Source: a virus (Duplodnaviria > Caudoviricetes). Taken from it: DNA of 53,027 nt. This document shows positions 8,478-46,632 of the stretch, in pieces. Location: positions 1 to 53,027 of the IMG/VR virus record IMGVR_UViG_3300045885_000475, one strand, 5' to 3'. Each line of letters begins with the position of its first letter. The stretch's first letter is position 1. The notes beneath the pieces are model-generated. The model had not been told where the DNA came from and did no database searches. It was given only the letters and a program-made list of their open reading frames with translations. The position numbers and the translations under genes are program-made.

Positions 8478-8522
8478 CGGCCCGTCCCGTGTGCAGACGT
8501 CTGCAGCGGGGCGGGCCGTTTC
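8478..8522. terminator. Long hairpin between convergent genes, containing palindrome site A
   Basis: cggcccgtcccg...cggggcgggccg stem enclosing TGCAGACGTCTGCA, followed by TTT. Confidence 0.6.
8491..8506. promoter_or_regulatory. 16-bp palindrome site A (GTGCAGACGTCTGCAG)
   Basis: Perfect 14-bp core; one of 7 dispersed copies. Confidence 0.75.
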
Positions 8523-8973
8523 ACTTCTGGAACCGCAGGCGCCAGATCGGGGCGTCGTCGACGGGCTGCCCCTCCGCGATCGCGAGCAGCTCGTAGTCCC
8601 CCGGCGCGTCGACCTCGAGGTGCCCCTCGACGAAGCCCGGGAAGGACTCCGAGCCGTCGCGGGGCTGCCCGGGCACCTTCCCCGAGATCTCGGCGACGAC
8701 GGCCCCCCGCGAGGAGAGCAGGCGGACCGCCACGCCGAACTCGTGCTGCCCCTCCTCAATGCCCTCCAGGAGGAAGACCGCGGCGATCGGGACGTGCGTC
8801 GCCGGCGGCCGCCAGGGGAGCGGATCCAGGTAGAGGTTCACGGCGTGGTGGGTGCCGTTGGCCTGGTGGACCAGCCGCTCGCAGGCCATGAGCCAGGTGA
8901 TCCGCACGCCGGCGGATGGTCGCTCGAGCCGGCGCCGGCTGTCAACGAAAGGGACGAATGGCAGAAATGGCAA
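8521..8973 (-). CDS. DUF6941-like small beta protein (true start probably at VRITWLMACE)
   Basis: RITWLMACE...DPLP...PGDYEL pattern; similar to 42693-43154. Confidence 0.55.
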   Translation of the reverse strand: MPFLPFVPFVDSRRRLERPSAGVRITWLMACERLVHQANGTHHAVNLYLDPLPWRPPATHVPIAAVFLLEGIEEGQHEFGVAVRLLSSRGAVVAEISGKVPGQPRDGSESFPGFVEGHLEVDAPGDYELLAIAEGQPVDDAPIWRLRFQK

Positions 8974-9008
8974 TCTGCCAGCATTTATCGCGAAATATGC
9001 AATCCATC

Positions 9009-9036
9009 TTGAATATTACACGTCACATTGTATACT
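9009..9036 (+). promoter_or_regulatory. Sigma70-type promoter of the toxin-antitoxin operon
   Basis: TTGAAT-N16-TATACT in an AT-rich island; imperfect palindrome GCATTTATCGCGAAATATGC at 8981-9000 could be an operator. Confidence 0.65.
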
Positions 9037-9077
9037 CTCGGGCGTCTTAAGGGGCAGAGGTAATAGGAGACAGACCC

Positions 9078-9467
9078 ATGGAAGTCGTCAGGCGCAAGAT
9101 CGAGGCCGGGGCGAAGTGGTCGTTGTCGTACCTCAAGGTGGCGGCCGAGGAAGGCCGAAAGATCCTCACGCAGGACGTGCAGTATGACCACGCGGTCGAC
9201 CAGGTGGAGCTGCTGGCCTGCGAGGACGACCCGACGCACCCCAAGGCCCTCCTCGAGGTGCAGCAGCACGGCGACTTCTACGAGCTTAAGGAAAAAGGCG
9301 GGGTGCTGCGGAAGATCAACCTCCGGGTCTACTTCATCCTGGTGGACAGGCCGACGAAGACCCTGTGGGTGATCGGGTGCTACAAGAAGGAAGACGAAGG
9401 GCAGACGCCCAGGCAGATCGTGATCAAGATGAAGACGCGCGCGAAATATGTGAGGGACAGGCTGTAA
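9078..9467 (+). CDS. RelE/HigB-like (Gp49-type) toxin
   Basis: FYELK...LRVYF...LWVIGCYKK...QTP pattern typical of the RelE/Gp49 fold; upstream of an HTH gene. Confidence 0.7.
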   Translation: MEVVRRKIEAGAKWSLSYLKVAAEEGRKILTQDVQYDHAVDQVELLACEDDPTHPKALLEVQQHGDFYELKEKGGVLRKINLRVYFILVDRPTKTLWVIGCYKKEDEGQTPRQIVIKMKTRAKYVRDRL

Positions 9468-9474
9468 GGGGGCG

Positions 9475-9975
9475 GTGGACCAAGTGCAGTACGTGGGAGG
9501 AGATATGAGCCTCATGAAGGTGGACTCGGAGCGAGTGGTGCAGCTCGCAAAGATGGAGGAGATGGTGCTCGCCATCCTCCTCGATAGGATCGCGAAGCTG
9601 CCGAAGGAGGGCCAGGAGGACCTCGCGGAGTTGATGGACCTCTTCAGCAAGAGCACCACGAAGAAGGAGAGGGAGGAGATCCTGGAGTCGATGAAAGAGC
9701 TGCTCCAGCCGTCGTTGATCGGCGAGCTGGTCCAGGGTCCGATGCCGAAGTCGGGCACGAAGGACCTGGAGAACCGCGCCGCGTACCTGGGGCAGAAGAT
9801 CAAGGAGCTGCGCGCGAAGAAGAGCATGACCCAGGAGGACCTGGCCGAGCTCTCGGGGATCCCGCAGAGCTACATCAGCCGGCTGGAGGCGGGCCAGCAC
9901 AGCCCGTCGCACGCGACGCTGGAGAAGATCGCCCAGGCGCTGGGCGTCGACGTCCACCAGATCGACTACGAATAG
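9475..9975 (+). CDS. XRE-family HTH protein (HigA-like antitoxin or repressor)
   Basis: IKELRAKKSMTQEDLAELSGIPQSYISRLEAG...LEKIAQALGV. Confidence 0.85.
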   Translation: MDQVQYVGGDMSLMKVDSERVVQLAKMEEMVLAILLDRIAKLPKEGQEDLAELMDLFSKSTTKKEREEILESMKELLQPSLIGELVQGPMPKSGTKDLENRAAYLGQKIKELRAKKSMTQEDLAELSGIPQSYISRLEAGQHSPSHATLEKIAQALGVDVHQIDYE

Positions 9976-9990
9976 TCGCACGAGGCGGGA

Positions 9991-10026
9991 AAGAAAGGCC
10001 CCGGTGATGAGCCGGGGCTTTTTTTA
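9991..10026. terminator. Bidirectional intrinsic terminator
   Basis: A-rich 5' flank, GCCCCGG-N7-CCGGGGC stem, T7 tail; between convergent genes. Confidence 0.85.
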
Positions 10027-10920
10027 TGCCCGCGGGTGCGCTCGCCGGAGGACCTCCCGGAGCCGGCCCAGGGCGACGTGCGTGTACCGCTGGGTGCTCG
10101 TGATCGACTTCTGCCCCAGGAACTCCTGGACCTCCCGGAGGTTGGCGCCCCGCTCCAGGAGGTGCGTCGCGATCGAGTGGCGGAACATGTGGGGGTGCGC
10201 CGGCCCCTCCACGCCGGCGCGCGCGGCCGCCTTCACCACGACGTCGCGGAAGGGCGTGTAGCTGATCCGCGTGCCGCGGCTCGAGATGAAGAGCGCCTGC
10301 TCGTGCTCGCGGCCGCGGCGGTGCAGGATCTTGGCGCGCTCGGGGAGCCAGGCGGCGATCGCGTCGAGCGCCGGCCGAGTGAGCTGGAGGAGGCCCTCCT
10401 TCCTTGGCTTCTGGACGACGGTGGCCAGCCCCGTCTCGAACGACAGGCGGTCGAGGTCGATCCGCCGAACCTCACGCTCGCGGCCGCCGGTCGCGTAGAG
10501 CGCCTCGAGGATGGCGCGGTTCCTCAGGTTGTGGGCGCCGCCGATCACGCGGGCGACCTGGTCCTCCGTCCAGTAGTCCGGGAGCTGCTCCTCGAGCTTG
10601 ATCGGATCCAGGTCGTCGCAGGGGTTCGCCGGCACGAGCCCCTCGCGCTTCAGGTGGTGATAGAAGCAGCGGACGGCGACGATCCCGTCCTTGATGGTCT
10701 TCGAGGTCTTCTCCTCCTGGCGCTGGTGCAGGATCCAGCGCTCAAGGAACCGGAAGTCCACGGCGAGCGTGTCGACGCCCGTGAAGGCGAGGTAGGCGCA
10801 GAACGCTTTCAGCTTGGACCCATAGACCCGGATGGTGTCCGGCGCGAAGTTGCGCGCCAAGAGGTACCGCCGCCAGCTCTCGACCAACGCCGAGAGCATG
10901 GCGGACCGAGCTTCCGCCAA
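10024..10920 (-). CDS. XerC/D-like tyrosine recombinase
   Basis: YATGGR, HPHMFRHSIATHLLERGANLREVQEFLGQ, TQRYTHV; 298 aa with no arm-binding domain. Confidence 0.9.
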   Translation of the reverse strand: MAEARSAMLSALVESWRRYLLARNFAPDTIRVYGSKLKAFCAYLAFTGVDTLAVDFRFLERWILHQRQEEKTSKTIKDGIVAVRCFYHHLKREGLVPANPCDDLDPIKLEEQLPDYWTEDQVARVIGGAHNLRNRAILEALYATGGREREVRRIDLDRLSFETGLATVVQKPRKEGLLQLTRPALDAIAAWLPERAKILHRRGREHEQALFISSRGTRISYTPFRDVVVKAAARAGVEGPAHPHMFRHSIATHLLERGANLREVQEFLGQKSITSTQRYTHVALGRLREVLRRAHPRA

Positions 10921-11059
10921 AAATCCCCAGCTGCTGCCCGCACCCTACCCTTTTCCCCTGCGGGCGAACCACTCTCCACGTTGCAAGCCACGGAAGCCCC
11001 GGTCGCCTGATCTACGTTCAACGCATTTTGGAAATTTCGGTTCGGGAAAATAATTTCTC

Positions 11060-11087
11060 TTGACACACTCGAGCCATGCGGTAGTCT
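11060..11087 (+). promoter_or_regulatory. Early-operon sigma70 promoter
   Basis: TTGACA-N16-TAGTCT, preceded by an AT-rich UP-like tract. Confidence 0.65.
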
Positions 11088-11094
11088 CATCACC

Positions 11095-11353
11095 GGAGAC
11101 AAGCGCGTGATGATTCAGAGCCCGGCGACTCCTGCCCGCCCACCGGTCGTAGCGCTTGTCTCCAACACGCCTGTGGCCGGTGGGGCAGGGCTCGGCGGGC
11201 TCGATTTGGCGGGTCAGGCTTCCCATCAGGCGCGGCCGGAATAGTTGAAAGTCTCGGACTTCGACTAGTCGGCCCCTGATGGTGAAGCCTCCCGCAACGG
11301 GAGGCAGCAGTGGTAGTGCGAGACGGGGAGGGGGCTTCCAAGAAATCCCCCTC
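11095..11353 (+). ncRNA. Structured leader / putative regulatory RNA
   Basis: 12-bp complementary pair 11095-11106/11152-11163; long stems 11118-11202 and 11209-11295; alternative hairpin 11287-11305; hairpin 11328-11353. Confidence 0.6.
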
Positions 11354-11696
11354 TGAGGGCCCATGTGACCTCCGACCCACGGAGGCCCTGGTCGGGCCCT
11401 TTCAATCTTCGGGCCCGGTCATCCGGGTGGTCTGCAGGCGCTGCGGCGCCGTCCTGAGCGAAGGGGAGCCCGGGGCGGTCGAGCAGCTCGTGGTGTGCGG
11501 CCGCTGCGACCGGGACACCAGGCCGGCGCAGCAGCGCGAGTACTTCCCGGCCGTCCCCCAGGAGCCCCGCCGGTCGATCGAGGAGCAGACGTTCCTCGCG
11601 TACCTCCGGGGCCTGGGCCTCGAGGCCCTGCCGGTGATCCTCCTCGTCCCCACGGCCCTCCTCTGGGCGGTCAGCGCCCGGGCGGTGCTGGCGTGA
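11310..11696 (+). CDS. Small Zn-ribbon protein with a C-terminal hydrophobic segment (start uncertain, likely downstream of the leader)
   Basis: CRRC...CGRC; LPVILLVPTALLWAV; stop overlaps the next start. Confidence 0.5.
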   Translation: MVVRDGEGASKKSPSEGPCDLRPTEALVGPFQSSGPVIRVVCRRCGAVLSEGEPGAVEQLVVCGRCDRDTRPAQQREYFPAVPQEPRRSIEEQTFLAYLRGLGLEALPVILLVPTALLWAVSARAVLA

Positions 11697-12061
11697 GCGA
11701 GCACACTCCTGGCCCCTGGACCTGGCAGCGCGGCGAGAAGTGGCACCGGCTCCACGGCAAGGGTCCCGACGGCAAGCCGGTGACGATTCTCCGGGCGGCT
11801 CAGAACAACGGGCCGGTCATGACTCCGGCCAGGCGGTCCGACCAGGACCTCATCGCGGCCGCGCCCGATCTCCTCGCCGCCCTCCAGAGGTACGTCGACG
11901 CCTACCAGGGCTACATGGATGGACGCGAGAACGCGAGCGAGATCGCCGCCGCCGAACTCCAGGCTCGGCGCGCGATCGCCAAGACGGCGCCCCCCCCCAC
12001 GGGCTCCCTGACCTCCGCGGGCCCCTCCTTCCTCCCCCGGCCGAGTGGAGGTGACGCGTGA
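11693..12061 (+). CDS. Hypothetical phage protein (HTPGPW family)
   Basis: HTPGPW...LIAAAPDLLAAL motif common in phage early genes. Confidence 0.75.
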   Translation: MSEHTPGPWTWQRGEKWHRLHGKGPDGKPVTILRAAQNNGPVMTPARRSDQDLIAAAPDLLAALQRYVDAYQGYMDGRENASEIAAAELQARRAIAKTAPPPTGSLTSAGPSFLPRPSGGDA

Positions 12062-12237
12062 AGAACGCCTTCGACTCCGGCTTCTGTACGGCGACCCGTT
12101 GCCGCACGTTCCTCGAGCCCGGCCAGGGCGAGCAGTTCCAGCGGCCTGACGGCACGATCGACCGCTTCTGTCGGCGCCACGCCCAGGAGGAGTACTCCAC
12201 CCCCGAGCTGCAGACGTCTGCGGAGGTGCGGTCGTGA
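12058..12237 (+). CDS. Small Cys/His protein, 59 aa (not in the ORF track)
   Basis: GGAGGTGA RBS; GTGA overlaps at both ends; translated by hand. Confidence 0.6.
   Translation: MKNAFDSGFCTATRCRTFLEPGQGEQFQRPDGTIDRFCRRHAQEEYSTPELQTSAEVRS
12208..12223. promoter_or_regulatory. Palindrome site B (CTGCAGACGTCTGCGG)
   Basis: 1 mismatch to the core; overlaps the RBS of the next gene. Confidence 0.7.
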
Positions 12238-14886: not shown

Positions 14887-15222
14887 ATGACGAACATGCA
14901 GCAGCCGGGCCCGCGCGACCTGGAGCGCCGGCTCAAGGAGCAGGGGCTCATGCTGACCCGGCTCAAGCGCGAGCGCGAGCAGATCGAGGAGGACCTGGTC
15001 GCCGCGCAGCTCGACAGCCAGCTGACCGGAGACAAGTACCTCCGGGCCGATGACAAGCGCACCAAGGTCCGGATGGAGCTGGAGCGGCTCACCACCTTCA
15101 TCAAGCTCAGGCACTGGTCGACCCACCCGAAGCACAAGCGTCGGCCGGCCTACGGCTGCGACTTCTGCGCGCAGATCGCGTCGGCCGAGAAGGTTAAGCA
15201 CGAGACGGGTCCGGAATTTTGA
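14887..15222 (+). CDS. Hypothetical coiled-coil protein
   Basis: GGAGG RBS; 111 aa; ends with H/CDFC motif. Confidence 0.7.
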   Translation: MTNMQQPGPRDLERRLKEQGLMLTRLKREREQIEEDLVAAQLDSQLTGDKYLRADDKRTKVRMELERLTTFIKLRHWSTHPKHKRRPAYGCDFCAQIASAEKVKHETGPEF

Positions 15223-15233
15223 AGGAGACGGGC

Positions 15234-17498
15234 ATGCGCGTGACGACGAAAGGCTTCAAAGCGCACGACGCGGACCACGAGCTGGCCGCGCTTACGGTGC
15301 TCTCCGGGCCGAACGGCTCGGGCAAGTCCACGATCGCGGATGCGGTCCGCTTCGGCGCGCTGGGGTACATCCCCGCCCTGGGGAAGCGGCCGGTGGACAC
15401 GGCGGTCCTGATGGCGAACGGCGGGCTCCAGGTCGAGATCTCGCTCGACGACGGCCGCACGATCGCGCGCGGGCTGTCCCGGACCGACAAGGGCTACACG
15501 CAGACGGCCGAGGCCTCCTGGATCCGGAACGCGAAGCCCCAGGAGACGGGGAAGGCGATCCTCGGGCTCTTCGGCGCCGAGGAGCAGGACGTCGCCGAGT
15601 GCCTGGACATTCGCCAGCTGCTCGCCGCGACGCCCAACCAGCGGGCTTCCCGCCTCGAGCAGCTGCTCTCGGCCGGCCAGCGGCCCGCGGAGGAGAAGGC
15701 CGCGGCGGTCGCCCGCCTGGTCGTGATGCGCCTGGCCGACACGACCGAGGAACGGATGCCGGCGAACTACCTCCAGGCGATGCCCATGGTCCCCGAGCGC
15801 CAGCAGCAGGTCCTCCGGGAGATCGCCGGCATGCTCAAGGCGAAGATCTTCGAGGCCGGGATCCCGGGCGCGCTCGACTGGGCGAAGGAGGAGAAGAACC
15901 GGGCGGCCGACGGCCTGAAGAAGAAGACGGCCGCGGAGTACGAACTCAAGAAGCGGACGCTCGAGGTCGTCGAGCCCGACGAGCGCGAGATCTCCCGCCT
16001 CGAGGCCGAGCGCGGGAAGCTCCAGCGGGAGCTGGGGTCGCTCGACGCGCGACACGGCGCCTGGGCCACCCTCGCCCAGCGCCGGCGAGGCCTCGAGGAG
16101 TCGCTCGGGGGTGTGCGCGACTACGTCGACATGGCAGAACGGCAGCTGGTCGACGCCGAAGCCGTCCACGGGAAGGCGATCCAGGACCTCGAGGAGAGCC
16201 GGAAGACCATCGCCGGCGCCCAGGCGGCCCTCAAGCTGCCCGCCGCGGCCGACTACTCCAAGGCCGAGGCGATCGAGATGGAGTGCCGCGAGATCGCGGA
16301 GCAGGCCCGGGCGATCGAGTTCCCCGAGGTCCCCACCGTCGAAGCGGCCGCAGCGAAGGTCGAGGCCGCGCAGCGCGAGATCGAGCGCGCCAAGTCCTCG
16401 AGCTGGTCGGAGGTCCTGGAGATCGCCGAGAAGATCGCAGACGTCTGCACGACGAAGGGCGCGAAGGACGCGACGGCCAAGCCCCTCAAGCGCCTCCGGG
16501 AGCTGGCCCGCGCCGGCCTGGGGTCCGATCCCGAGGAGCTGAAGCACGCCCTCGACCTGGCCAAGCACGACCTCAGCACCCTCGAGACGAAGCGGTCGAA
16601 GGCGCAGAAGGAGCAGCTCCAGCTCTCGGCCCAGGTCGACGAGCTGAATGCCCGGGAGCGGAAGCGCTTCGCCGAGGCCCAGCAGATCCGAACCGCCGTC
16701 GCCGACGAGTGGCGGAAGGCGAGCGAAGCCTATGAGGCCAGGCGCCGCGAGCTGCTCGACATGAGCCAGCGCGCGGAGAACCAGATCGAGACGCACCGCC
16801 GCGCCCTGGCGGCCGCGCGGGAGCAGAAGGCCACGGTGGACCGCCGCCAAGCATCCCTCGTGGACCAGCTGCGCGGCATGGGCGAGGCCCAGGAGGCGCC
16901 GCCCGACCCGAAAAAGGTCCGGGAGGACCTGGCGGCCGTGAGCCAGCAGCTGCAGCGCCTGGTCGACGCCCGGGCGGTCCACAAGGAGATCCACGTCGTC
17001 CTCGACTCGATCGAGGAGGCGAAGGCCGAGCGCGACGTCTACGCCGGCGTCGAGTGGGCCCTCCAGCGCCAGCGCGAGGTCGAGATCTCGGAGGCCGGCG
17101 GGCCCCTCCTCCGGACCGCCCGCGAGTTCCTCCAGGCCGCCGGCCGGCGCGAGGAGCCCTTCATCCGGGCGGCCTCGGGCCTCTGCGCGATCGGGTGGAA
17201 GACCCCCGAGGGCCGCGAGGTCCAGATCCAGGCGCTCTCGGGCGGCGAGTGGTGCGTCTACGCGGCCGCGCTCACGGCCGGCGTGGTCCTCGCCCGCCCT
17301 TCGGCGGTCAAGGTCCTCCTGGTCGAGGCCGGCGAGTGCGACGAGGTCCACTTCGCGCAGCTGCTCGCCGGGATCCGCAAGGTCGCGGACGAGGGCCGGG
17401 CCCTCACCGCGGCGATCGTGATGACTCCCCGGGCCGTCAAGACGCGGCCCGAGGGCTGGAAGGTGATCGAGACGGAGCTTCAGAAGGCGACGGCATGA
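15234..17498 (+). CDS. SMC/Rad50/SbcC-like ABC ATPase
   Basis: N-terminal Walker A GPNGSGKST, long coiled coil, signature LSGGE, degenerate Walker B VLLVE. Confidence 0.85.
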   Translation: MRVTTKGFKAHDADHELAALTVLSGPNGSGKSTIADAVRFGALGYIPALGKRPVDTAVLMANGGLQVEISLDDGRTIARGLSRTDKGYTQTAEASWIRNAKPQETGKAILGLFGAEEQDVAECLDIRQLLAATPNQRASRLEQLLSAGQRPAEEKAAAVARLVVMRLADTTEERMPANYLQAMPMVPERQQQVLREIAGMLKAKIFEAGIPGALDWAKEEKNRAADGLKKKTAAEYELKKRTLEVVEPDEREISRLEAERGKLQRELGSLDARHGAWATLAQRRRGLEESLGGVRDYVDMAERQLVDAEAVHGKAIQDLEESRKTIAGAQAALKLPAAADYSKAEAIEMECREIAEQARAIEFPEVPTVEAAAAKVEAAQREIERAKSSSWSEVLEIAEKIADVCTTKGAKDATAKPLKRLRELARAGLGSDPEELKHALDLAKHDLSTLETKRSKAQKEQLQLSAQVDELNARERKRFAEAQQIRTAVADEWRKASEAYEARRRELLDMSQRAENQIETHRRALAAAREQKATVDRRQASLVDQLRGMGEAQEAPPDPKKVREDLAAVSQQLQRLVDARAVHKEIHVVLDSIEEAKAERDVYAGVEWALQRQREVEISEAGGPLLRTAREFLQAAGRREEPFIRAASGLCAIGWKTPEGREVQIQALSGGEWCVYAAALTAGVVLARPSAVKVLLVEAGECDEVHFAQLLAGIRKVADEGRALTAAIVMTPRAVKTRPEGWKVIETELQKATA
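16435..16450. promoter_or_regulatory. Palindrome site C (TCGCAGACGTCTGCAC)
   Basis: 1 mismatch to the core; inside the SMC-like gene (encodes ADVC). Confidence 0.65.
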
Positions 17499-17633: not shown

Positions 17634-19109
17634 ATGACCACGGAAATCGCCAAGGTGGAGTTCAAGCAGATCCAGCTCGAGGACCTCAAGGAGTCGCCCT
17701 ACAACCCGCGCCGGTCGTTCGACGACGACACCCTTAAGGAGCTGACCGACAGCATCAAGGCCAAGGGGATCCTGTCACCGCTCCTCGTCCGGGCGGTGAA
17801 CAACCACTTCGAGATCGTCGGCGGGGCCCGGCGCTACCGGGCGGCGAAGAAGGCCGGGCTCAAGTTCGTGCCCTGCACCGTCCGAAAGTTCACCGACGAC
17901 GAGGCCCTCGAAGCCGCGGTCATCGACAACCTTCAGCGCCAGGACGTCGCGCCTCTCGAGGAGGCCCGCGGCTATCAGGAGCTGCTCAAGCGCGGGCACA
18001 AGGTCGAGGACCTGGCCAAGAAGACCGGGAAGAGCGAGCGGTACATCTACGCGCGCCTCGAGCTGCAGAAGCTCGCTCCCGCGGTCCAGCGGGCGCTCGA
18101 CGACGGGAAGATCACGGCGAGCCACGCCCAGGAGATCGCGCGGCTCGACAACGAGGAGGACCAGAAGGAGGTCCTCGAGAAGGCGGTCGTCGAGGTCTAC
18201 GAGAACGACACCGGAGTGGGCGAGGGGCTGCTCGTCGAGCCGAAGTACGGCGACACCGGGGGCATGGGCGACCTCAAGGCGACGGTGAGCATCCGCGACT
18301 TCAAGAAGATCGTCGACGCCAAGAAGGTCGGCGCCGACCTGGTCGCCCAGCTCGACGCCCTCAAGGTCGCCGGTCACAAGGCCGCGCTCGTCACCGAGGA
18401 CAGCTGGTACCACCAGAGCAAGCAGGTCGTGACGAGCGGGAAGTGGAGGAGGCAGGGTCCCGGTCACTGCAAGTTTCCCGCGAAGGGCGTGCTCGTGGAC
18501 GACAAGAACCGCGGGAAGGTGATCGACATCTGCCTCACGACGAACTGCCAGAAGCACTTCAAGAACCACCCCGTCGGTGGACCGAGGTCGCCTCAGCAGG
18601 AGGCCCGCGAGAAGGCGGCCGCGGAGAAGCGCGCCCGGGAGGAAGCCGCACGGAAGGCCAGGGAGGAGCTCGAGAAGAAGATCAAGCTCGAAGCGTACCG
18701 CCAGATCTGCAACAAGGTGCGCGAGGTCCCCAAGCTCGCGCTGGCGCAGGTCCTGGCCGAGGCGATGCACCACGCGGCGCCGCACCTGGACGCGCTGTTC
18801 CCGGGGATCACGAACGGGACCACGCAGACCCAGGCGAAGAAGATCCTGACGTTCAAGCCGATCCAGCTCGCGCAGCTCGCGATCGGGATCGTCTGCACCG
18901 CCGACATCCAGGGCTGGACTTGGCAGCGAGACCTGCGCCTGGGCGACTTCACGAAGGAACTGGGCATCAACTACGCCGCCCTCGAGAAGGGCATCCGCGG
19001 GAAGTTCGCGGCCGAGAAGCGCGAGCAGGAGAAGCAGGCCAAGATCGCGCGCGACGCGCTCGGCGGCATCAAGGCGAAGAAGCTGAAGGCTCCCAAGAAG
19101 AAAAAGTAG
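17634..19109 (+). CDS. parB: ParB/Spo0J-family protein (CTPase domain, HTH, extended C-terminus)
   Basis: PYNPRRSF, SIKAKGILSPLLVR, GGARRYRAA, DNLQRQD, HTH VEDLAKKTGKSERYI. Confidence 0.9.
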   Translation: MTTEIAKVEFKQIQLEDLKESPYNPRRSFDDDTLKELTDSIKAKGILSPLLVRAVNNHFEIVGGARRYRAAKKAGLKFVPCTVRKFTDDEALEAAVIDNLQRQDVAPLEEARGYQELLKRGHKVEDLAKKTGKSERYIYARLELQKLAPAVQRALDDGKITASHAQEIARLDNEEDQKEVLEKAVVEVYENDTGVGEGLLVEPKYGDTGGMGDLKATVSIRDFKKIVDAKKVGADLVAQLDALKVAGHKAALVTEDSWYHQSKQVVTSGKWRRQGPGHCKFPAKGVLVDDKNRGKVIDICLTTNCQKHFKNHPVGGPRSPQQEAREKAAAEKRAREEAARKAREELEKKIKLEAYRQICNKVREVPKLALAQVLAEAMHHAAPHLDALFPGITNGTTQTQAKKILTFKPIQLAQLAIGIVCTADIQGWTWQRDLRLGDFTKELGINYAALEKGIRGKFAAEKREQEKQAKIARDALGGIKAKKLKAPKKKK

Positions 19110-19239: not shown

Positions 19240-19902
19240 GTGGTCGGAGAGAGAGCGACAGCGGCCGCGAGCGCGGCCACGGCACCGGATCAGGAGAAGA
19301 AGCTCTTCCCCTGTTCCGAGTGCGACTTCATGACCGAGGACCTCGGCCAGCTCGGCGAGCACCTCGAGGCCCATCGGGAGGTCACCGCCCCCACGCCGCC
19401 CACAACTCGCGGCAAGCCCACGTCGGCACCTTGCTCCAAGGGCTGCGGCCGCCACTTCCCCTTCAAGCACGGGCGCGCGGACCGCGAGCAGCGCCAGCAC
19501 GAGCAGATCTGCGACGGCCGGCCGCCCATCGTAGCGGCGCCGCCGGCCAAGAAGGACGAGACGGGGACGAACCCCAAGGAGGAGGCGGTGGCGAAGAAGG
19601 CGAAGTGTTCGAACTGCGGCGAGATGGTCTCGATGCACCCGCCGGCCAGGGCGCGGCACCTTAAGCGATGCACGCGCGGCGCGGGCGCCGGCGAGAAGAG
19701 CCGCGAGGAGAAGGAGCCCCTCGTCGTGGTCGACAAGGACCAGCCGACGCTCCCGATCCGCGATCGCGTGATCGCGATGCTGGAGCTTGAGGAGGAGCGG
19801 CTCTCGCAGGAGCTGGGCCGCACGAAAGCGATGCTGCGCGCGGTCCGCGACGCGGCGCCCGATGAGGGGGGGGGTGATACCCGCCCTACGAACCGGAAGT
19901 AG
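19240..19902 (+). CDS. Multi-Zn-finger protein
   Basis: CSEC...HLEAH; CSKGC...HEQIC; CSNC...HLKRC. Confidence 0.65.
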   Translation: MVGERATAAASAATAPDQEKKLFPCSECDFMTEDLGQLGEHLEAHREVTAPTPPTTRGKPTSAPCSKGCGRHFPFKHGRADREQRQHEQICDGRPPIVAAPPAKKDETGTNPKEEAVAKKAKCSNCGEMVSMHPPARARHLKRCTRGAGAGEKSREEKEPLVVVDKDQPTLPIRDRVIAMLELEEERLSQELGRTKAMLRAVRDAAPDEGGGDTRPTNRK

Positions 19903-19952: not shown

Positions 19953-20507
19953 GTGATTCGAGAGTTGACGCCCAGGATCCGGAAGCTCGCGGCCCGCGTG
20001 GGCGCGAAAGGCGCCGTCGACGCCGACGACTTGGTCCAGGCGGCGCTCATCCAGGTCCTCCGCGCGCGCCGGCGGTTCGACCCCGCGAGGGGCACGAGCT
20101 GGCGGACGTTCGCCCTCACGCGCGCCCGCTTCGCCATGCTCGACGAGCTCCGGGAGGTGGACCACGTCCCTCGCCTCGAGCGGATCCGCGCCAAGCGCGA
20201 GGGCCGGAAGCTTCCCCGGATGCTCTCCATGCAGACGTCGGACACCCGCCTCGTCCCTCGAGATCTCCCGGACCTCGTCCCCTGTGGTCCGGTAAGCGCG
20301 GCCGTCGCCGGCGACCTGTGGGCGACCCTCCCCACCCTGGTCGGCCGGCGGCGGGCCCGCGTCCTCGAGGCGTACTACCGCCACGGCTTCAACCTGAAGA
20401 AGCTCGGGCGGATCCTCGGCATGAGCGAGTCCCGCGCGTGCCAGCTGCGCCAGCAGGGCATCGAGCGCCTGCGCGCCCACCTCGAGAAGAAGGAGTCCAC
20501 GTCATGA
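19953..20507 (+). CDS. FliA/WhiG-like (sigma-28 type) sigma factor with shortened region 3
   Basis: DDLVQAA...FDPARG...F...R.RFAMLDELREVDHVPR; region 4 LKKLGRILGMSESRACQL. Confidence 0.85.
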   Translation: MIRELTPRIRKLAARVGAKGAVDADDLVQAALIQVLRARRRFDPARGTSWRTFALTRARFAMLDELREVDHVPRLERIRAKREGRKLPRMLSMQTSDTRLVPRDLPDLVPCGPVSAAVAGDLWATLPTLVGRRRARVLEAYYRHGFNLKKLGRILGMSESRACQLRQQGIERLRAHLEKKESTS

Positions 20508-24523: not shown

Positions 24524-24774
24524 AGAAGCGACGCGCGACGCCTGTCTATCTGAACCCGCGGCGCGACTGCCCGGACTGCCAGGGTGCCGGGTGGGTGGTC
24601 AGCAAGGACGCGCCGGTCCGGATCCCGGAGGGCGCGAAGGCCTCGAGCTACTCGCCGCCGCTCGTCCGGTGTCGCTGCACGATCCCGGGAGTGCAGACGC
24701 CTGCGGAGCCGATGCCGCCGGCCGAAGTCGTCGACCAAGCGCGGCGCGCGAGCGGAGAGCGGGAGGAAGCCTGA
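24520..24774 (+). CDS. Zn-finger protein (CxxCxGxGW...CxC)
   Basis: CPDCQGAGW...RCRC; follows the initiator. Confidence 0.65.
   Translation: MKKRRATPVYLNPRRDCPDCQGAGWVVSKDAPVRIPEGAKASSYSPPLVRCRCTIPGVQTPAEPMPPAEVVDQARRASGEREEA
24691..24706. promoter_or_regulatory. Palindrome site D (GTGCAGACGCCTGCGG)
   Basis: 2 mismatches to the core. Confidence 0.5.
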
Positions 24775-25043: not shown

Positions 25044-25279
25044 TGGTCGAGATCCTGATCGGCGTAGTCGTCGTGGCCGTGATCCCCCTCCTGCAGTGGC
25101 TGGCCTGCAAGGGGGCGGAGGCCATGGAGCGGGCCCGCTGCGCCGCGATCGTGGCGAACCAGATCTGCGTCGGGCATCAGAGGTTCCCCAACCTGGTCGA
25201 GCGGACGCTGGGCCGGTGCTCTTCCTGCGACCGGCTCCACGACGCGCTGCGCGAGATCACGCGGAGGAAGGACGAATGA
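25043..25279 (+). CDS. Small membrane-anchored Cys protein
   Basis: N-terminal hydrophobic helix; GGAGGAGG RBS. Confidence 0.6.
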   Translation: MVEILIGVVVVAVIPLLQWLACKGAEAMERARCAAIVANQICVGHQRFPNLVERTLGRCSSCDRLHDALREITRRKDE

Positions 25280-29993: not shown

Positions 29994-30518
29994 ATGGACG
30001 TGAGCGACGGCCACACCAAGAACGGGAACGGCCACGCCGAATCCCAGCCGCAGTCGCTGCCGTCCGCCGTTGCGCCCCCGGCAGGGGGCCCGGTCGGGGA
30101 TCCCGCCGAGGGACCTCCGGCCGGACCTCTCGCCGTCAGGAACGAGAAGGGCCAGTTCCTCCCCGGTGTCTCCGGCAACCCCGCGGGCTCAAACGGCGGC
30201 CGCCGCGACGAGCTCCGGACCAAGTTCTTCGAGGGCTTCGTCGCCTGGTTCAACGGGGAGTTCAAGCAGTACCCGTCCCGGCGCGCGATGCAGATCGCGC
30301 ACCAGCACTACGCGCAGCTGTGGAAGGCGGCGTGCAAGGATGGCTCGCGGTTCAACCACCTCCTCGACAAGCTCATGGAGTGCGCGACGCCGCCGGCGGC
30401 CGGCAAGGGCGACGGCGTGACGATCAACAACACCTTCGAGTCCACGATCGCGATGCTCCGCGCCGAGCGCCAGGCGGCCGCGGCCCGCCGCCCGGGCCTG
30501 GAGGACCTCGAGGAGTGA
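29994..30518 (+). CDS. terS: Terminase small subunit (putative)
   Basis: RNEKGQFLPGVSGNPAG motif; immediately upstream of terL. Confidence 0.65.
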   Translation: MDVSDGHTKNGNGHAESQPQSLPSAVAPPAGGPVGDPAEGPPAGPLAVRNEKGQFLPGVSGNPAGSNGGRRDELRTKFFEGFVAWFNGEFKQYPSRRAMQIAHQHYAQLWKAACKDGSRFNHLLDKLMECATPPAAGKGDGVTINNTFESTIAMLRAERQAAAARRPGLEDLEE

Positions 30519-32152
30519 TCGTCTTGACCGCTCTCGCCCTCGGCTCGGTCTTCTTCAACCCGGGCGAGTTCATCGAGACCTTCCTGTGGATCCGCAACAA
30601 GCGCGACGCGATCGTGCCGCTCCAGCTGAACCCGACCCAGAGGAAGACCCTCGAGATCCGCCGGCAGACGATCCGCTCGGGGAAGCCGCGGCGCTGGATC
30701 ATCCTCAAGGCCAGGCGCCAGGGCCAGACGACGCTCTGGCAGGCGCTCAACTTCCACACCGTGTGCACGAAGCCGAACACGCGCTGCGTCACGCTCGGGC
30801 ACGAGACCGAGGCGACGGAGCAGATCTTCCAGATCGCGGACCTCTTCTGGAAGCGGATGCCCAAGGAGTTCCGGCCCGCGCGCCTGACGGAGCACGACAA
30901 GCGCGACCTCGAGTTCCCGGGCCTCAACTCGATGTTCTACATCGGCACCGCGGGGAAGAAGGGCTTCGGCCGCGGCACGAACGTCACACGGTACCAGGTG
31001 ACGGAGCTCCCGCACGCGGGCGGCACGCGCGCGGACCACGAGAGCCTGATGGCCGGCCTCGACGAAGCGGCGCAGGAGGGGGAGGGAGTACTCGAATCGA
31101 CCCCGGCCGGCGTCGGGGATCTCTTCCACGAGACCTACCAGGGCGCGAAGGACGGCGCGAACGACTGGACGCCGATCTTCTTCCGCTGGTTCGACGACCC
31201 GACGTATCGCAAGATCCTGGACGCGGCCGCCCGCCGCGAGCTCCTCGCCTCCTACACCGACGAGGAGAAGGACCTCGTCCGGAAGCACGCCCTCGAGCCC
31301 GAGCAGATCGCCTGGCGCCGGCAGATGCAGCGGAAGCGCGGCCGCCTGGCGCCGCAGGAGTACCCCGAGGACGACGTCACCTGCTTCCTCCTCTCCGGGC
31401 ACTGCTTCTTCGATCGACTGCTCCTGGCCGCCATGAAGCTCCGCGCGCCCGAGCCTGTCGAGAACGCCTGGCCCGACGAGGAGGGAACCGCCCAGCTCCG
31501 GATCTGGAAGCGGCCGCTCGGGGGCCACGAGTACGCCGCCGGCGGGGACGTGGCCGAGGGGATCCGCGGTGGGAACTACAGCTCCCTCATCGTGCGCGAC
31601 GTGAAGACCCTGGAGCCGATGGCCACACTCCGCGGGCACTGGAAGCCCGAGGAGTTCGGGAAGCGGTGTGCGGACGTCTGCACGAAGTTCAACGGGGCCC
31701 TCCTCGCGATCGAGCGGAACAACCACGGCCATTCGGCGCTCAATACGCTCCAGAACCAGGTCGACTACCGGAATCTCTACTGGCACGCCGAGTATGACGC
31801 GAAGGGCGGCGGCCGGAGCCAGGTGATCGGCTGGGCCACCACGCCGAAGTCCCGCCCGATCATGCTCGACCACTACCGGGAGCTCGTCGAGAGCGGCCAG
31901 GCGCCGCTGTGGGATCCCCGCGTGATCGACGAGTGCTCGACCTTCGTGAAGCAGGAGGGGAAGCGCGAGACCTACGCCGCGGAGGACGGCTGCCAGGACG
32001 ACTTGGTCATCGCCGACGCGATCTGCCTGCAGGCGCGCGAGTCGGCGCTCGGTGAGCGGAGCGAGGTCGGCGCCGGCTACGACCCGGCGGCTTACCTCGA
32101 GGCGACGGGAGGCCCCATGTTCCCGTCCGGCGGGGGGAACCTCTTCCCATGA
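30515..32152 (+). CDS. terL: Terminase large subunit
   Basis: LNPTQ, ILKARRQGQTT, ESTPAG, QEYP, GGDVAEG, IERNNHG, QDDLVIA. Confidence 0.92.
   Translation: MIVLTALALGSVFFNPGEFIETFLWIRNKRDAIVPLQLNPTQRKTLEIRRQTIRSGKPRRWIILKARRQGQTTLWQALNFHTVCTKPNTRCVTLGHETEATEQIFQIADLFWKRMPKEFRPARLTEHDKRDLEFPGLNSMFYIGTAGKKGFGRGTNVTRYQVTELPHAGGTRADHESLMAGLDEAAQEGEGVLESTPAGVGDLFHETYQGAKDGANDWTPIFFRWFDDPTYRKILDAAARRELLASYTDEEKDLVRKHALEPEQIAWRRQMQRKRGRLAPQEYPEDDVTCFLLSGHCFFDRLLLAAMKLRAPEPVENAWPDEEGTAQLRIWKRPLGGHEYAAGGDVAEGIRGGNYSSLIVRDVKTLEPMATLRGHWKPEEFGKRCADVCTKFNGALLAIERNNHGHSALNTLQNQVDYRNLYWHAEYDAKGGGRSQVIGWATTPKSRPIMLDHYRELVESGQAPLWDPRVIDECSTFVKQEGKRETYAAEDGCQDDLVIADAICLQARESALGERSEVGAGYDPAAYLEATGGPMFPSGGGNLFP
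31668..31683. promoter_or_regulatory. Palindrome site E (GTGCGGACGTCTGCAC)
   Basis: 1 mismatch to the core; inside terL (encodes ADVC). Confidence 0.65.
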
Positions 32153-37932: not shown

Positions 37933-38949
37933 ATGGACCTCGACCTTCTGACCTACGAATCCCTGATGGGGATGATCAACGAGTTCGAGCAGGAGGAGCT
38001 GACGCTCCTCAACTCCGGGATCTGCCCGGACGAGAGCGACCTGACCCAGAGCTTCGTGTGGGACATCCTGGGGATCCCGCGCGACGTCTTCAAGTTCCAG
38101 AGCAAGCACTCGGCGTCCGACGAGCGGAAGCTGGTCGTGATCGGGCAGCAGACCGCCCGGCCGGCCACGACCTTCCTGAACAAGAAGCTCACGGCGTCGC
38201 AGTGGCAAGACCTGCGGAGCCCGGGCAGCAACGCGCGGCAGGCCGCGGCCGCGAGGCAGATCGCCCTCGACCTCAAGGACCTGGACGACGCGATCGCGCG
38301 CCAGGACGAGTTCATGATCGCCGGCGCCCTGCAGGGCCAGCTGGACATCACGATCCACGACATCGCCGTCTCGATCGACTACGGCATCCCCGTCGCGAAC
38401 GTCTTCGGGCTGGCCCTCGGCGGCGATCAGCAGATCGCGGTCGACTGGTCGGACGAGTCGGCCAAGATCGGCGACGATGTGCGTCGGATGATCCTCGCCG
38501 GCTCGCACAGCTCCGGCCGTACCATGCGTCACGCCTGGACCTCGGGCAAGATCCTGGAGCACATCCAGGCGAGCCAGGAATTCCAGGAGAAGGTCGGGAA
38601 CACCGAGAGCGGCGCCCAGGTCTTCCGCGAGGGCACGATCGGCCGCTTCAAGGGCCTCGACTGGCACCGCCTCGACCACTCCTTCCTCGACGGCGCGACT
38701 CCGACGCCATACTGGGACGAGAACACGGTCGTCCTCACCCCGAACCCCGACCGCGCGTGGCTCTCGATGCTGCGCGGCGGCCAGATGATCCCGACGAACG
38801 ACGGCCGGGGCCTCCAGGAGGTCCTGGGCAAGGCGGCCTGGGCGGGGATGATGAAGGATCCCCCGGCGATCGCGCTCTACCTGCGCGACGTCCGGATCCC
38901 CGCGCTCAAGCTCCCCGGCGCCGTGGTCAAGGCGACGGTGACCGCGTAA
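37933..38949 (+). CDS. Major capsid protein (lambda E-like HK97 fold)
   Basis: 338 aa; R..E.M...AL.G...IDYGIP...W; ends IP...P..VVKATV. Confidence 0.85.
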   Translation: MDLDLLTYESLMGMINEFEQEELTLLNSGICPDESDLTQSFVWDILGIPRDVFKFQSKHSASDERKLVVIGQQTARPATTFLNKKLTASQWQDLRSPGSNARQAAAARQIALDLKDLDDAIARQDEFMIAGALQGQLDITIHDIAVSIDYGIPVANVFGLALGGDQQIAVDWSDESAKIGDDVRRMILAGSHSSGRTMRHAWTSGKILEHIQASQEFQEKVGNTESGAQVFREGTIGRFKGLDWHRLDHSFLDGATPTPYWDENTVVLTPNPDRAWLSMLRGGQMIPTNDGRGLQEVLGKAAWAGMMKDPPAIALYLRDVRIPALKLPGAVVKATVTA

Positions 38950-41061: not shown

Positions 41062-41859
41062 ATGGTCGACCAGAACGTCCGCGCCGCCGACCCGAGGAAC
41101 TACGGCGTCCCCGAGAAGGTCAGCCTCTGGATCCGGAACAAGGGTTCGACCGATCCGGCCGACTGGAAGGACCTGGGGAGCGTGATCGACGTCTCGATCA
41201 CCCCGGAGATCGAGCGTCTGGAGCACTTCGCCAACCGCCGCGGCGCCCGGGCGAAGGACCGCGAGGTCATCAGCTCCCGGAAGATGACGATCGACTTCTC
41301 GATCGAGGAAGTCAACCTCCACAACCTCCAGCACGCCTTCCAGGACGGCGAGGAGTCCGACTCGGCCACGAAGGACTACAAGGACGGCCGGATGTACCCG
41401 AACCCCGGGACGGCCGGCACGATCGAGCTCGGGGACACGAACGTCAAGAACGTGGTCGTCCGGGACGGCAACCTGGACGGGGACGTCGAGGCCGTCTTCA
41501 CCGAGGGGGTCGAGTACTCCGTCGACCTGGCGAACGGCATCGTGACCATCCTGGGCGGCGGTCTGGCGGACGAGGAGGTCGTGCCCGAGGTCCACATCTT
41601 CTACGAGAAGGAGGTCACCGTCACGACCTTCCAGCTCTTCCCGGGCACGGAGATCGAGGTCGAGGCCCAGTTCCAAATCGTGGGCGCCGGCGTCGTGAAG
41701 CAGATCTACACCCTGCCGAACGCCGTGCTCCGGAACAACGGCGCGATCTCGATCGGCGACGGGTCGACCTGGCAGTCGATCCCGCTCACCCTCGAGGCAC
41801 TGGTGGACGCCACGGGCGAGCTCGGGCAGGGCGCGATCGTGAACGAGGGCGAGCTGTAA
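41062..41859 (+). CDS. Major tail tube protein
   Basis: WKDLG.V...ITPE.E...H...R.G; EE.N..NL; acidic, 265 aa. Confidence 0.8.
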   Translation: MVDQNVRAADPRNYGVPEKVSLWIRNKGSTDPADWKDLGSVIDVSITPEIERLEHFANRRGARAKDREVISSRKMTIDFSIEEVNLHNLQHAFQDGEESDSATKDYKDGRMYPNPGTAGTIELGDTNVKNVVVRDGNLDGDVEAVFTEGVEYSVDLANGIVTILGGGLADEEVVPEVHIFYEKEVTVTTFQLFPGTEIEVEAQFQIVGAGVVKQIYTLPNAVLRNNGAISIGDGSTWQSIPLTLEALVDATGELGQGAIVNEGEL

Positions 41860-41889: not shown

Positions 41890-41905
41890 CTGCAGGCGTC
41901 TGCAG
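41890..41905. promoter_or_regulatory. Palindrome site F (CTGCAGGCGTCTGCAG)
   Basis: 1 mismatch to the core; intergenic. Confidence 0.75.
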
Positions 41906-41923
41906 GTGGGAAAGGAGACGGGG

Positions 41924-42690: not shown

Positions 42691-42692
42691 GA

Positions 42693-43154: not shown

Positions 43155-43187
43155 GCCTGGAATGGTCGCTCGAGTGGCGAGCTCGAG

Positions 43188-43556: not shown

Positions 43557-43593
43557 TGCGAAGTATACGACTGTTTGAACTTCATGGTGACCC

Positions 43594-45180: not shown

Positions 45181-45189
45181 GAGAGAGCG

Positions 45190-46011
45190 ATGAGCACCTA
45201 CAGCTTAGTGCGTCGGGGAGTGATCAGCCTGACCTCGGCCGATGCCGGCACGTCTAAGGACGTCGACATTTCCGGCGCCGTCAAGACCGGATCGGCGATC
45301 GTGGTCTCGAGCATCCGCTCGAATCGGAAGCCGGTCAAGGTCCAGCGCGGCCAGATCGCCGTGACGGAGGCCGCGACCTCCCCCGCAAACGCCGCAATCA
45401 CCGCCGTCGCGGCGCTCGCCCAGGCCTACGTCGTCGCCACCGTGCGCGAGAAGCGAGCGGGAGGGATCGGCGCGACCGTGAAGCTCTCCGCGGTCGACCA
45501 GGTGCGCCTCGAGTGGCTGGGGGGCGCCCTGGGCGCCGGCGAGGACATCGTGGCGGAATTCGAGGTGGTCGAACATCTCCTGACGCGCCAGGCCGCGACG
45601 ATCCGGCTGCTCGACGTCGACACGGTCCGGGTCGAATGGGACACGGCGCTCGAGGCGGGCGAGACGATCACCGTCTCATACGAAGTCTATGACGTGGAGG
45701 ACCTGGGCGACAGCCTCCAGGAGATCCTCTTCCGGCTCCAGAAGATGCTCGCCATCCAGGGCGAGAATTCCATCACCGACCTGCACACCTACGATGACGC
45801 CGGCAACCCCACGCAGTTCCGCGTCCGGGCGTTCGACACCAAGGACGACGCCGAGGCCGCGACGATTGACCTTCCCGCCGGCGACGCCCTCCAGGGCGGC
45901 GAACTCTCCCGGTACCTGGTCACCTTGGACTGGAGCACGGCGAAGAACCGGCCGCTCTCCATTCTATCGGTCCGCACGCATCTCCTGACACCCACGCCGG
46001 GGGTGAGCTAG
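45190..46011 (+). CDS. Tail-associated protein with an internally duplicated beta domain
   Basis: VRRG/VQRG and two AT..L...D.VR.EW...L.AGE.I....EV repeats. Confidence 0.65.
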   Translation: MSTYSLVRRGVISLTSADAGTSKDVDISGAVKTGSAIVVSSIRSNRKPVKVQRGQIAVTEAATSPANAAITAVAALAQAYVVATVREKRAGGIGATVKLSAVDQVRLEWLGGALGAGEDIVAEFEVVEHLLTRQAATIRLLDVDTVRVEWDTALEAGETITVSYEVYDVEDLGDSLQEILFRLQKMLAIQGENSITDLHTYDDAGNPTQFRVRAFDTKDDAEAATIDLPAGDALQGGELSRYLVTLDWSTAKNRPLSILSVRTHLLTPTPGVS

Positions 46012-46013
46012 GC

Positions 46014-46610
46014 ATGTGGCGTCCGAACACCCTCCTGGGATTCCGCCCGGCCGGCTGGCCGCAGCTGGTCAATCCCCGCGTGCCGTTCTCGCGGCCGACA
46101 CGGAATGCGGATCCCCGCCTGAACCCGGAGACGGGCGGCGGCCGTCGGATGACGCACCCGTACCTCGACGACATCGTCTACCCGGAGAACCCCACCCGGA
46201 TCACGAACTTCGACTACGACCGGATCCGGAAGGTGCCCACGGTCCTGACCAAGACGGCCGGCGGGACGGCGGTCGCGCAGTTCCCCGAGTTCGCGGACGA
46301 CGTCCCGATCACCGAGATCTGGGAGGCGAAGGACCTCTCCACGATCGTGGACCTCTACCGGCTCTTCCGGGAGTACCTGACGTCGACGCTGCCGACCGGG
46401 CGGTACATCGGCTGGCAGCCGCGGGACCTCTCTCCCTACAACTACTTCGTGGAGCTCCTGGACGTGCGCCTGGGCCAGGGCGAGGAGCACGTCGTCGAGG
46501 AGCTCGGCCACCGGGAGCCCTACATGATGCGCGAGTCGCTCCAGGTCCAGTTCAAGCTGATCCAGGAGGCCAAGGCGCCCGCCGGCGCCATGGTGTTCCT
46601 CGGGCTCTGA
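46014..46610 (+). CDS. Putative distal tail protein (start may be 46149)
   Basis: Position and size. Confidence 0.55.
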   Translation: MWRPNTLLGFRPAGWPQLVNPRVPFSRPTRNADPRLNPETGGGRRMTHPYLDDIVYPENPTRITNFDYDRIRKVPTVLTKTAGGTAVAQFPEFADDVPITEIWEAKDLSTIVDLYRLFREYLTSTLPTGRYIGWQPRDLSPYNYFVELLDVRLGQGEEHVVEELGHREPYMMRESLQVQFKLIQEAKAPAGAMVFLGL

Positions 46611-46616
46611 AAGCTT

Positions 46617-46632
46617 CTGCAGTCGTCTGCAC
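46617..46632. promoter_or_regulatory. Palindrome site G (CTGCAGTCGTCTGCAC)
   Basis: 1 mismatch to the core; intergenic, just before an RBS. Confidence 0.7.

Follow-up and report, generated by a model that had tools for sequence, protein, structure and literature searches.

The combination of a ParB-family clamp with dispersed palindromes is already known from plasmids and from integrative and conjugative elements (ICEs). On the IncP plasmid RK2, KorB is a cytidine triphosphate (CTP)-dependent sliding clamp that acts up to 1.5 kb away (PMC11790492), and KorB and its operator OB are reviewed in PMC13768133. On ICEclc, the orphan ParB-like clamp BisD, which has an extra domain beyond canonical ParB, spreads over ~50 kb (PMC12409273). 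A 2025 survey found orphan ParBs to be frequent on prophages and plasmids, and the portion of it used here names no DNA targets for them (10.1101/2025.10.10.680097). In this work we analysed a 53,027-bp stretch of DNA (the window), the complete virus record IMGVR_UViG_3300045885_000475 from IMG/VR, a member of the Caudoviricetes with direct terminal repeats. A first-pass annotation of its sequence had noticed seven copies of one palindrome and had assigned them to a ParB encoded by the same phage. Judged from sequence and from the company the motif keeps in other genomes, the seven palindromes are probably the cognate parS-like sites of this orphan ParB. A conserved, phage-private set of 16-bp sites belonging to an orphan ParB that is widespread among temperate tailed phages appears to be undescribed in the literature searched, where no account of these sites was found, the exact 14-mer was absent and 12-mer cores turned up only in unrelated oligonucleotides.

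Seven copies of a dyad in one phage genome

Exactly seven matches to the 14-bp core TGCAGACGTCTGCA were found in the window at up to two mismatches, one of them perfect, five with a single mismatch and one with two (Table 1). These are the seven places listed in the first-pass annotation, whose coordinates are one base lower as they give the starts of the 16-mer frame, and its count of six copies within one mismatch of the core was borne out as well. Dinucleotide-preserving shuffles of the window (n = 100) gave a mean of 0.15 matches and a largest count of 1, so that none reached seven and the earlier estimate that the copies are not random was upheld. The 16-bp palindrome GTGCAGACGTCTGCAC, allowed up to three mismatches, returned the same seven places only, against 0.22 expected. 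Every site retained at least one perfect half-site, and because isolated half-sites elsewhere in the window sat at their chance number (6 against ~5.9), it is the dyad and not the half-site that is enriched.

Such copies could have arisen by chance, through codon usage or as a side effect of restriction-site composition, and the pair GAC-GTC (Asp-Val) is indeed a common codon pair in the window. A Markov model predicts 52 occurrences of the hexamer GACGTC and 51 were counted; as the two agree, there is no sign of a restriction-site effect, and avoidance or selection of a restriction site was dropped on that ground. This origin is already contradicted by the shuffles, by the multi-copy counts in 50 other records and by the control-palindrome scan described below. 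Three of the copies are non-coding, and the 16-mer recurs in phages of 43-75% local G+C. The copies inside the SMC/Rad50-like and terL genes both read ADVC in translation. The ADVC of site 5 was not kept in the terL homologue of the phage genome G068, and the protein therefore does not force the DNA sequence at that site. We give this explanation practically no weight, and conclude that the seven window palindromes are real and non-random.

Genes in the window were called by a log-odds caller based on GC3, the G+C content at third codon positions (75 genes), and were then scanned against Pfam and PHROGs. Gene calls and translation confirmed the placement given in the first-pass annotation, with three copies between genes, one over a ribosome-binding site (RBS) and two inside genes with the shared ADVC reading. 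Site 2 overlaps the GGAGG RBS of an open reading frame (ORF) starting at 12234, and site 6 precedes the RBS of the next gene. Three of the seven sites are intergenic in a window of which 6.9% is non-coding, and four high-G+C genomes had 9 intergenic sites out of 19 where ~1.3 were expected. The caller is unreliable under ~62% G+C, where at least 30% is left as 'non-coding', and intergenic counts in relatives were restricted to those four genomes and to the cultured Variovorax phage VarioGold, for which the GenBank annotation was used. In the window the sites extend over 38 kb, neighbours being 3.7-14.9 kb apart, and the coefficient of variation of their spacing was 0.49 against 0.84 for random placement (P = 0.05). 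It fell below random in all seven genomes for which it was computed, each test being weak on its own (P 0.015 to 0.38).

A megablast search of 20 kb of the window against cultured phages gave no match, single-protein locus searches with TerL and ParB found no close relatives, and every tblastn match to cultured phages was below 60% identity. Two related genomes, the complete G052 of 54.3 kb and the 30.7-kb fragment G051, have a structural module in common with the window at 25-56% amino acid identity and carry four and two palindrome sites, respectively, those of G051 being exact. The closest ParB was that of G051, at 53% identity over the full length, and G052 is a distant whole-genome relative. 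Each of the three genomes has one site just downstream of the homologue of g11, the gene that precedes site 1 in the window, and the remaining sites are not syntenic among them.

A long GC-rich hairpin with a T-rich run after it (region 8466-8520) has site 1 at its apex. A palindrome at a hairpin apex before a T-rich run at the end of late genes was also seen in G051 (~1770-1840, locus L371) and in VarioGold (5740-5790, locus L349), where the capsid gene is followed by a terminator-like hairpin whose apex is the exact 16-mer. The stems of the window and G051 hairpins differ in sequence and the apex dyad is kept; terminators may have formed around the site, or the site may have been inserted into them.

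An element that acts as RNA or as a structural hairpin, that is, as a terminator apex or an intercistronic stem-loop and not as protein-binding DNA, would explain these three apices and could also explain several IMG/VR copies located between a terminator T-run and an RBS. However, four of the seven window copies and about half of those in relatives lie inside genes without an extended stem, and the short stem alone (5 bp with a 4-nt loop) is weak. A role in RNA would also leave the co-occurrence with ParB and the dyad-symmetric variants reported below unexplained, and we regard it as very improbable.

Association of the palindrome with ParB in other genomes

In IMG/VR, the exact 14-mer was found at a minimum of 135 loci on at least 110 contigs, many of which carried several copies, whereas a control palindrome in which the two halves change places was found at 29 loci, all of them single copies. 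Flanking bases were compared at 137 exact sites. G stood at -1 in 103 and C at +1 in 102, with both together at 88 of the 137 and T..A at 10; because these flanks extend the symmetry, the element is a 16-bp dyad. From the 110 contigs, 50 of at least 15 kb were taken as a sample and the whole records were searched at up to one mismatch, which gave 191 sites against 7 matches to the reversed pattern. At least two sites were present in 43 of the 50 records and at least three in 36, and one record had eight in ~40 kb. Twenty of the 50 were classed as integrated proviruses.

The family ParB_N (PF02195) was detected in 41 of the 50 records sampled (17 of the 19 with a completeness of at least 90%), as against 1 of 25 control-palindrome records searched (of 29; Fisher p = 3e-11), although the figure of 41 is inflated, as an exact-match scan favours ParB phages whose parB often contains a copy. 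In many relatives that internal copy consists of the ADVC codons of a Cys4 ribbon, CxxCPKRxGNQP...ADVCTDPxCF. Four comparisons are free of this bias, namely the multi-copy counts given above, tblastn with the window proteins, retrieval by ParB similarity and the search of bacterial genomes.

When the 75 window proteins were compared by tblastn with seven fully fetched motif phages, ParB alone matched all seven, at 35-49% identity over residues ~10-190, and the XRE-type protein (marginally) and the integrase each matched one. Among 25 fetched genomes, ParB matched 24 and the next best protein, the integrase, matched four. Retrieval by ParB similarity alone gave 593 pattern stretches, 543 of them confirmed relatives, of which the best 80 were kept; the motif was present in 21 of the best 50 records, 12 of these having at least two copies, and the reversed control in 1 of 50. 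A tree was built from 25 ParB rows, of which 13, on both main branches, had the window-type site. The site label was clustered (5 changes against 8.6 in shuffles, 5 of 500 shuffles being as low), a descriptive result only, since motif presence had in part guided the choice of rows. The palindrome and ParB are found together in unrelated phages and also in bacterial genomes, and the association that the first-pass annotation had wanted to see in related phages is thus present. Its assignment of the sites to the phage's own ParB is favoured by the fact that motif and family travel together, with binding as a prediction from sequence.

The palindrome might instead be the operator of another regulator, with ParB as a passenger. 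The first-pass annotation had named the XRE protein as the alternative binder, and this is a clear helix-turn-helix (HTH) protein; a second candidate is the product of the ORF directly after parB, which is kept at that position in G051 and G053, and a third is a host factor. One genome with four sites and no detected ParB (G011, below) is what such a regulator would lead one to expect. The case for the XRE protein did not survive the comparisons, however: besides its marginal match to one of the seven motif phages, it had no match at E <= 1e-5 in the 25 fetched genomes, and no site falls within the XRE/integrase region 8907-11427 of the window. The ORF after parB was found in only 2 of the 25 genomes, and a host factor predicts chromosomal sites. 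We consider control by another regulator unlikely.

Equal frequency in host DNA, which the first-pass annotation had named as fatal to its proposal, was not seen in the bacterial genomes searched. In 401 evenly drawn Pseudomonadota genomes there were six exact copies of the 14-mer, in three genomes, and five of the six were at phage-type parB genes. One contig carried four of them in a stretch of 16.7 kb that lay 1.4 kb from a phage-type parB (E = 4e-120 against the ParB profile), one was inside another phage-type parB and one was a lone copy. Five large alphaproteobacterial genomes (27.2 Mb) gave two matches at up to one mismatch, the same number as the reversed control. The site is thus essentially private to phages, a rarity that holds for the genomes searched. 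A scan of the genome collection with the ParB alignment for prophage context was set aside, as its matches covered mostly the N-terminal third of the query and were largely alphaproteobacterial; these are taken to be chromosomal ParBs, and some of the genomes were reused as motif background. Two close, full-length ParB homologues (P0004 and P0013) bear source names of Vicinamibacteria (Acidobacteriota) and Planctomycetota metagenome-assembled genomes, which we treat solely as a lead to the host range of the window phage clade.

Two cultured temperate phages carry a ParB of this type, Variovorax phage VarioGold and Acidovorax phage Aval. The six sites of VarioGold comprise one exact 16-mer, four copies with one mismatch and one with two mismatches inside parB, and its genome has an annotated attP and an integrase. 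In both phages parB lies in a leftward operon between a cI-like repressor gene and the integrase gene. Aval carries the variant GTGCACACGTGTGCAC three times plus related copies (locus L350), the same variant is found in G086 (loci L365-L367), with three to four copies across these phages, and G055 carries TTGCGGACGTCCGCAA four times (loci L351-L352). Each of these variants differs from the window type on both halves at once, as expected of a dimeric sequence-specific binder. The helix after the HTH reads SRAL in two phages of the CAC type and SKAL, STAL or SHA in most of the window type, and the residue after the conserved Ser past the HTH is R in CAC-type and K, T or H in most GAC-type phages. 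Such natural specificity variants (GAC, CAC and CGGAC types) would offer a ready-made system for studying the evolution of ParB-site recognition.

A number of observations weigh against the pairing of these sites with ParB. The support for it consists throughout of co-occurrence. The window copies are degenerate, with one perfect 14-mer and no perfect 16-mer, and none is in or within 1.1 kb of the window's own parB, the nearest lying 1.2 kb upstream. Of the best 50 records retrieved by ParB similarity, 29 had no motif site, and in eight fully fetched ParB phages lacking the motif no other palindrome family was detectable by searches for exact 12-mers, near-palindromic 16-mers and a relaxed core, as judged against a simple composition estimate; because so many ParB records lack a site, the family is not tied one-to-one to the motif. 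Conversely, 9 of the 50 motif-bearing records lacked ParB_N, seven of them less than 90% complete. Also among the nine are G032 (100% complete, one site), without ParB_N, and G011 (40.7 kb, estimated 95% complete; loci L383-L385), with four sites and no ParB by Pfam or tblastn. For G011, the linear contig may lack the end that bears parB, or else the sites can be maintained or can act in the absence of ParB. The motifs that read GERR and ENLQR in most relatives are GARR and DNLQR in the window protein itself, the 25 ParB loci compared have no conserved neighbour in common, and no partner of the KorA or BisC kind was found, although no search was aimed at KorA-like proteins.

The ParB protein, its setting and its possible action

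The window ParB is a member of the ParB/Spo0J superfamily by its domains, a ParB_N fold (PF02195, 2.5e-29, above cut-off) followed by a ParB-type HTH (HTH_ParB, PF17762, 4e-18). Through these two regions it aligns with the family as KSERYIYARLEL against KSRSYIYGRLKL. Residues G64, R66, R67, R69, A70, N99, Q101 and R102 were invariant in 24 full-length homologues, and the protein is a putative CTP-type clamp. Equally invariant in the 24 was a Cys3His cluster formed by C279, C300, C305 and H308 (window 18468-18560). The window protein is without the first Cys4 ribbon, which most other members have (for example L140, L143, L147, L148 and L151), and many of these end in an AAWPFP-like sequence. 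Pfam recognised neither the Cys3His cluster, the Cys4 ribbon nor the AAWPFP-like end as ParB-family features and found no C-terminal ParB domain in the window protein; some short homologues carry PF23552. An AlphaFold2 model of the window ParB (mean pLDDT, the predicted local distance difference test score, 80.1) had a long helix at 320-361 and a helical C-terminal region, and the tail is rich in lysine. The top Foldseek matches in the PDB were CTP- or CDP-bound ParB, Noc and Spo0J, ParB-parS (6t1f, TMt 0.73) and KorB-KorA-DNA (8qa9, TMt 0.69), with alignments also to Noc-NBS complexes, and the part after residue 220 had no informative Foldseek match.

The ParB is by all indications of the sequence an orphan. 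Pfam detected no ParA-like family among the 75 window proteins, and the ParA families PF13614 (AAA_31) and PF01656 (CbiA) were found in 0 of 54 records, comprising the window and 53 related or motif-bearing ones, whereas 14 of 14 control genomes were positive. ParA-driven segregation of the window phage is disfavoured by this result, and of the uses suggested in the first-pass annotation it is segregation that loses ground, with compaction and long-range regulation both remaining. Nor are the sites clustered at or near the par locus, as in a ParABS partition system, being scattered over 38 kb.

Nevertheless, scattered centromere sites are used in partition by N15, a linear plasmid-prophage, and ParB could bind the window sites as dispersed centromeres for stable plasmid-like inheritance of a prophage. 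The window has a replication-initiator-like gene, its small XerC/D-like tyrosine recombinase could resolve dimers rather than integrate, and the sites are dispersed and not clustered. Against this stand the missing ParA-type ATPase, the integrated proviruses among the motif-bearing records, the attP and integrase of VarioGold, and the positions of parB in VarioGold, Aval and the window, which read as early lytic and not as maintenance. We think that a centromere role is improbable.

If the palindromes are the cognate sites of this ParB, a sequence of events can be proposed in which a ParB dimer would recognise the 16-bp dyad through its HTH, one half-site per monomer. Like ParB, KorB and BisD, the dimer would become a closed clamp once its N-terminal domain binds nucleotide, and the clamp would then leave the site and slide along the adjacent DNA; this bind-close-slide scheme is taken by analogy from PMC11790492, PMC12409273 and PMC13768133. 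Seven loading sites around a 53-kb genome could in this way place clamps over the whole phage chromosome. Their action would fall early in lytic growth, because parB of the window is in an early operon with recombination and replication genes and those of VarioGold and Aval sit between cI-like and integrase genes. We infer binding, clamp behaviour, timing and effect alike from these comparisons.

For the downstream effect, genome-wide transcription control in the manner of KorB or BisD is a reading that we hold at a little under even chances. Marking or organising the replicating phage DNA is possible as well, and held more tentatively, and some other effect is rather unlikely. A still broader proposal would be that temperate tailed phages have a large and ancient family of ParB clamps that lack a partner, with the 16-bp dyad placed genome-wide and even within parB, and that this family marks and controls the whole genome in lytic development as a counterpart of KorB and BisD with co-evolving specificity variants. 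This proposal is speculative and in our view has less in its favour than against it. If true, it would describe a phage-specific, self-recognising DNA address without counterpart in host chromosomes.

Among the neighbours of parB (Table 1), the ORF that directly follows it is a candidate for a clade-specific ParB partner. Loading of the neighbouring SMC-like protein by ParB was considered and dropped; because the SMC/Rad50-like gene does not accompany ParB in relatives, only one of 25 genomes (G068) giving a match, a weak one of 83 aa, its proximity is no evidence of a ParB-SMC link. ParB-dependent thymine dioxygenases involve ParBs without a DNA-binding domain (PMC13229309), and a role of this type was set aside, as Pfam found no such dioxygenase family among the window proteins. 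Elsewhere in the window we noted a Lar-like restriction-alleviation protein (25276-25509), a DUF1643 protein (27399-27875) and a family-2 glycosyltransferase (48951-49685), which possibly serve anti-defence or surface modification and are unrelated to the palindromes.

Table 1. Palindrome copies and selected genes of the 53,027-bp window. Site positions are those of the 16-mer frame; core starts and mismatches refer to the 14-bp core.
Feature	Position	Strand	Remarks
Site 1 GTGCAGACGTCTGCAG	8491..8506		Core start 8492, 0 mismatches (perfect 14-bp core); intergenic between convergent 7756-8466 (+) and 8521-8907 (-)
Site 2 CTGCAGACGTCTGCGG	12208..12223		Core start 12209, 1 mismatch; last codons of 59-aa ORF 12058-12237
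Site 3 TCGCAGACGTCTGCAC	16435..16450		Core start 16436, 1 mismatch; inside SMC/Rad50-like gene 15219-17498; reads ADVC
Site 4 GTGCAGACGCCTGCGG	24691..24706		Core start 24692, 2 mismatches, left half perfect; weakest copy; inside small ORF 24520-24774
Site 5 GTGCGGACGTCTGCAC	31668..31683		Core start 31669, 1 mismatch; inside terL 30515-32152; reads ADVC
Site 6 CTGCAGGCGTCTGCAG	41890..41905		Core start 41891, 1 mismatch; intergenic, after small hairpin downstream of major tail gene 41062-41859
Site 7 CTGCAGTCGTCTGCAC	46617..46632		Core start 46618, 1 mismatch; intergenic, flanked by tail-region genes 46014-46610 and 46643-46927, with an RBS immediately downstream
Tail/late region	through record ends up to 8466		
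g11	7756-8466	+	Convergent with 8521-8907
Small convergent gene	8521-8907	-	
XRE-type HTH protein	9475-9975		Clear HTH match
Small tyrosine recombinase (integrase)	10024-10899	-	Resembles XerC/D-type enzymes
Exonuclease-like gene and HNH endonuclease			Long early operon, rightward, which also has the SMC/Rad50-like, ParB, sigma factor and replication-initiator-like genes
SMC/Rad50-like ATPase, 759 aa	15219-17498		AAA_23 above Pfam cut-off, SMC_N below
ParB, 491 aa	17634-19109	+	ParB_N, HTH_ParB
220-aa ORF directly 3' of parB	19240-19902		Weak C2H2-like zinc-finger match
Small sigma factor	19965-20507		Sigma70_r2 and r4; two genes downstream of parB
Replication-initiator-like gene	23501-24523		phrog_9474
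terL	30515-32152		
Portal			
Capsid	37933-38949		
Major tail gene	41062-41859		Tape measure also present

Relation to stoperators, parS, BisD and KorB

Among phages, the nearest likeness is to the stoperators of Cluster A mycobacteriophages, which are asymmetric, follow the direction of transcription and serve as binding sites of the immunity repressor. Like them, the window sites are many copies of a short sequence (13-14 bp in stoperators) dispersed through a phage genome and also placed inside genes. They differ in that the window site is a dyad and in that the repressor-like XRE protein is absent from six of the seven motif phages.

Chromosomal parS is a 16-bp dyad of the same length as the window site, and its Pseudomonas consensus TGTTCCACGTGGAACN (PMC12409273) has the central ACGT in common with it. 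The likeness to chromosomal ParB-parS extends to the site copy inside parB in many of the phage relatives and to the structural matches with CTP-bound ParB, Noc, Spo0J and ParB-parS. Unlike chromosomal ParB-parS and Noc-NBS, the system described here has no ParA, its sites are found replicon-wide and are not clustered at an origin, the outer positions of the dyad differ, and the carrier is a phage.

The likeness to BisD is considered at the level of the ParB core. As in ICEclc, where bisS sites lie in inrR and ssb, the palindromes are partly inside genes, and BisD acts in the active phase of ICEclc and not in maintenance, which is how we would also read the timing of the window ParB. In contrast, the functional sites of BisD number two and are of a 23-bp type (GAGCTATCCCCnGGGGATAGCTC), where the window has seven dispersed 16-bp sites, and BisD works with a defined promoter-bound partner, BisC, whereas no partner was found for the window ParB (for BisD, as far as the portion of PMC12409273 used here describes it).

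KorB and OB offer a close parallel in overall design, a ParB-family protein with a short palindrome in many copies across the element, and the dispersal of operator copies over the whole element is a KorB-type trait found here with seven sites; for the window protein, clamp loading would follow by analogy. In the parts of the KorB literature drawn on, KorB has a further role in partition, together with a ParA partner, and depends on KorA or TrbA to lock the clamp, which sets it apart from the window ParB. The sites themselves differ, as seen when the core of the OB oligonucleotide, TTTAGCGGCTAAA, is set against the window dyad, and so do the carriers, a plasmid for KorB and a tailed temperate phage for the window ParB. 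The window protein has in addition its Cys3His cluster, which lies outside the Pfam ParB-family domains; the comparison with KorB covered other features.

The papers describing the two cultured phages are silent on such sites in the portions used here, that on VarioGold mentioning a ParB domain only, with no palindrome or repeat wording (PMC9658991), and that on Aval having neither ParB nor palindrome wording (PMC11619371). What the present analysis adds to the described systems is a precise candidate site assigned to one widespread phage ParB family, together with a cultured and non-pathogenic system, phage VarioGold with its six sites, in which the idea can be tested directly. If the clamps do regulate or organise the whole phage genome, long-range control of the KorB and BisD type would extend from plasmids and ICEs to tailed phages.

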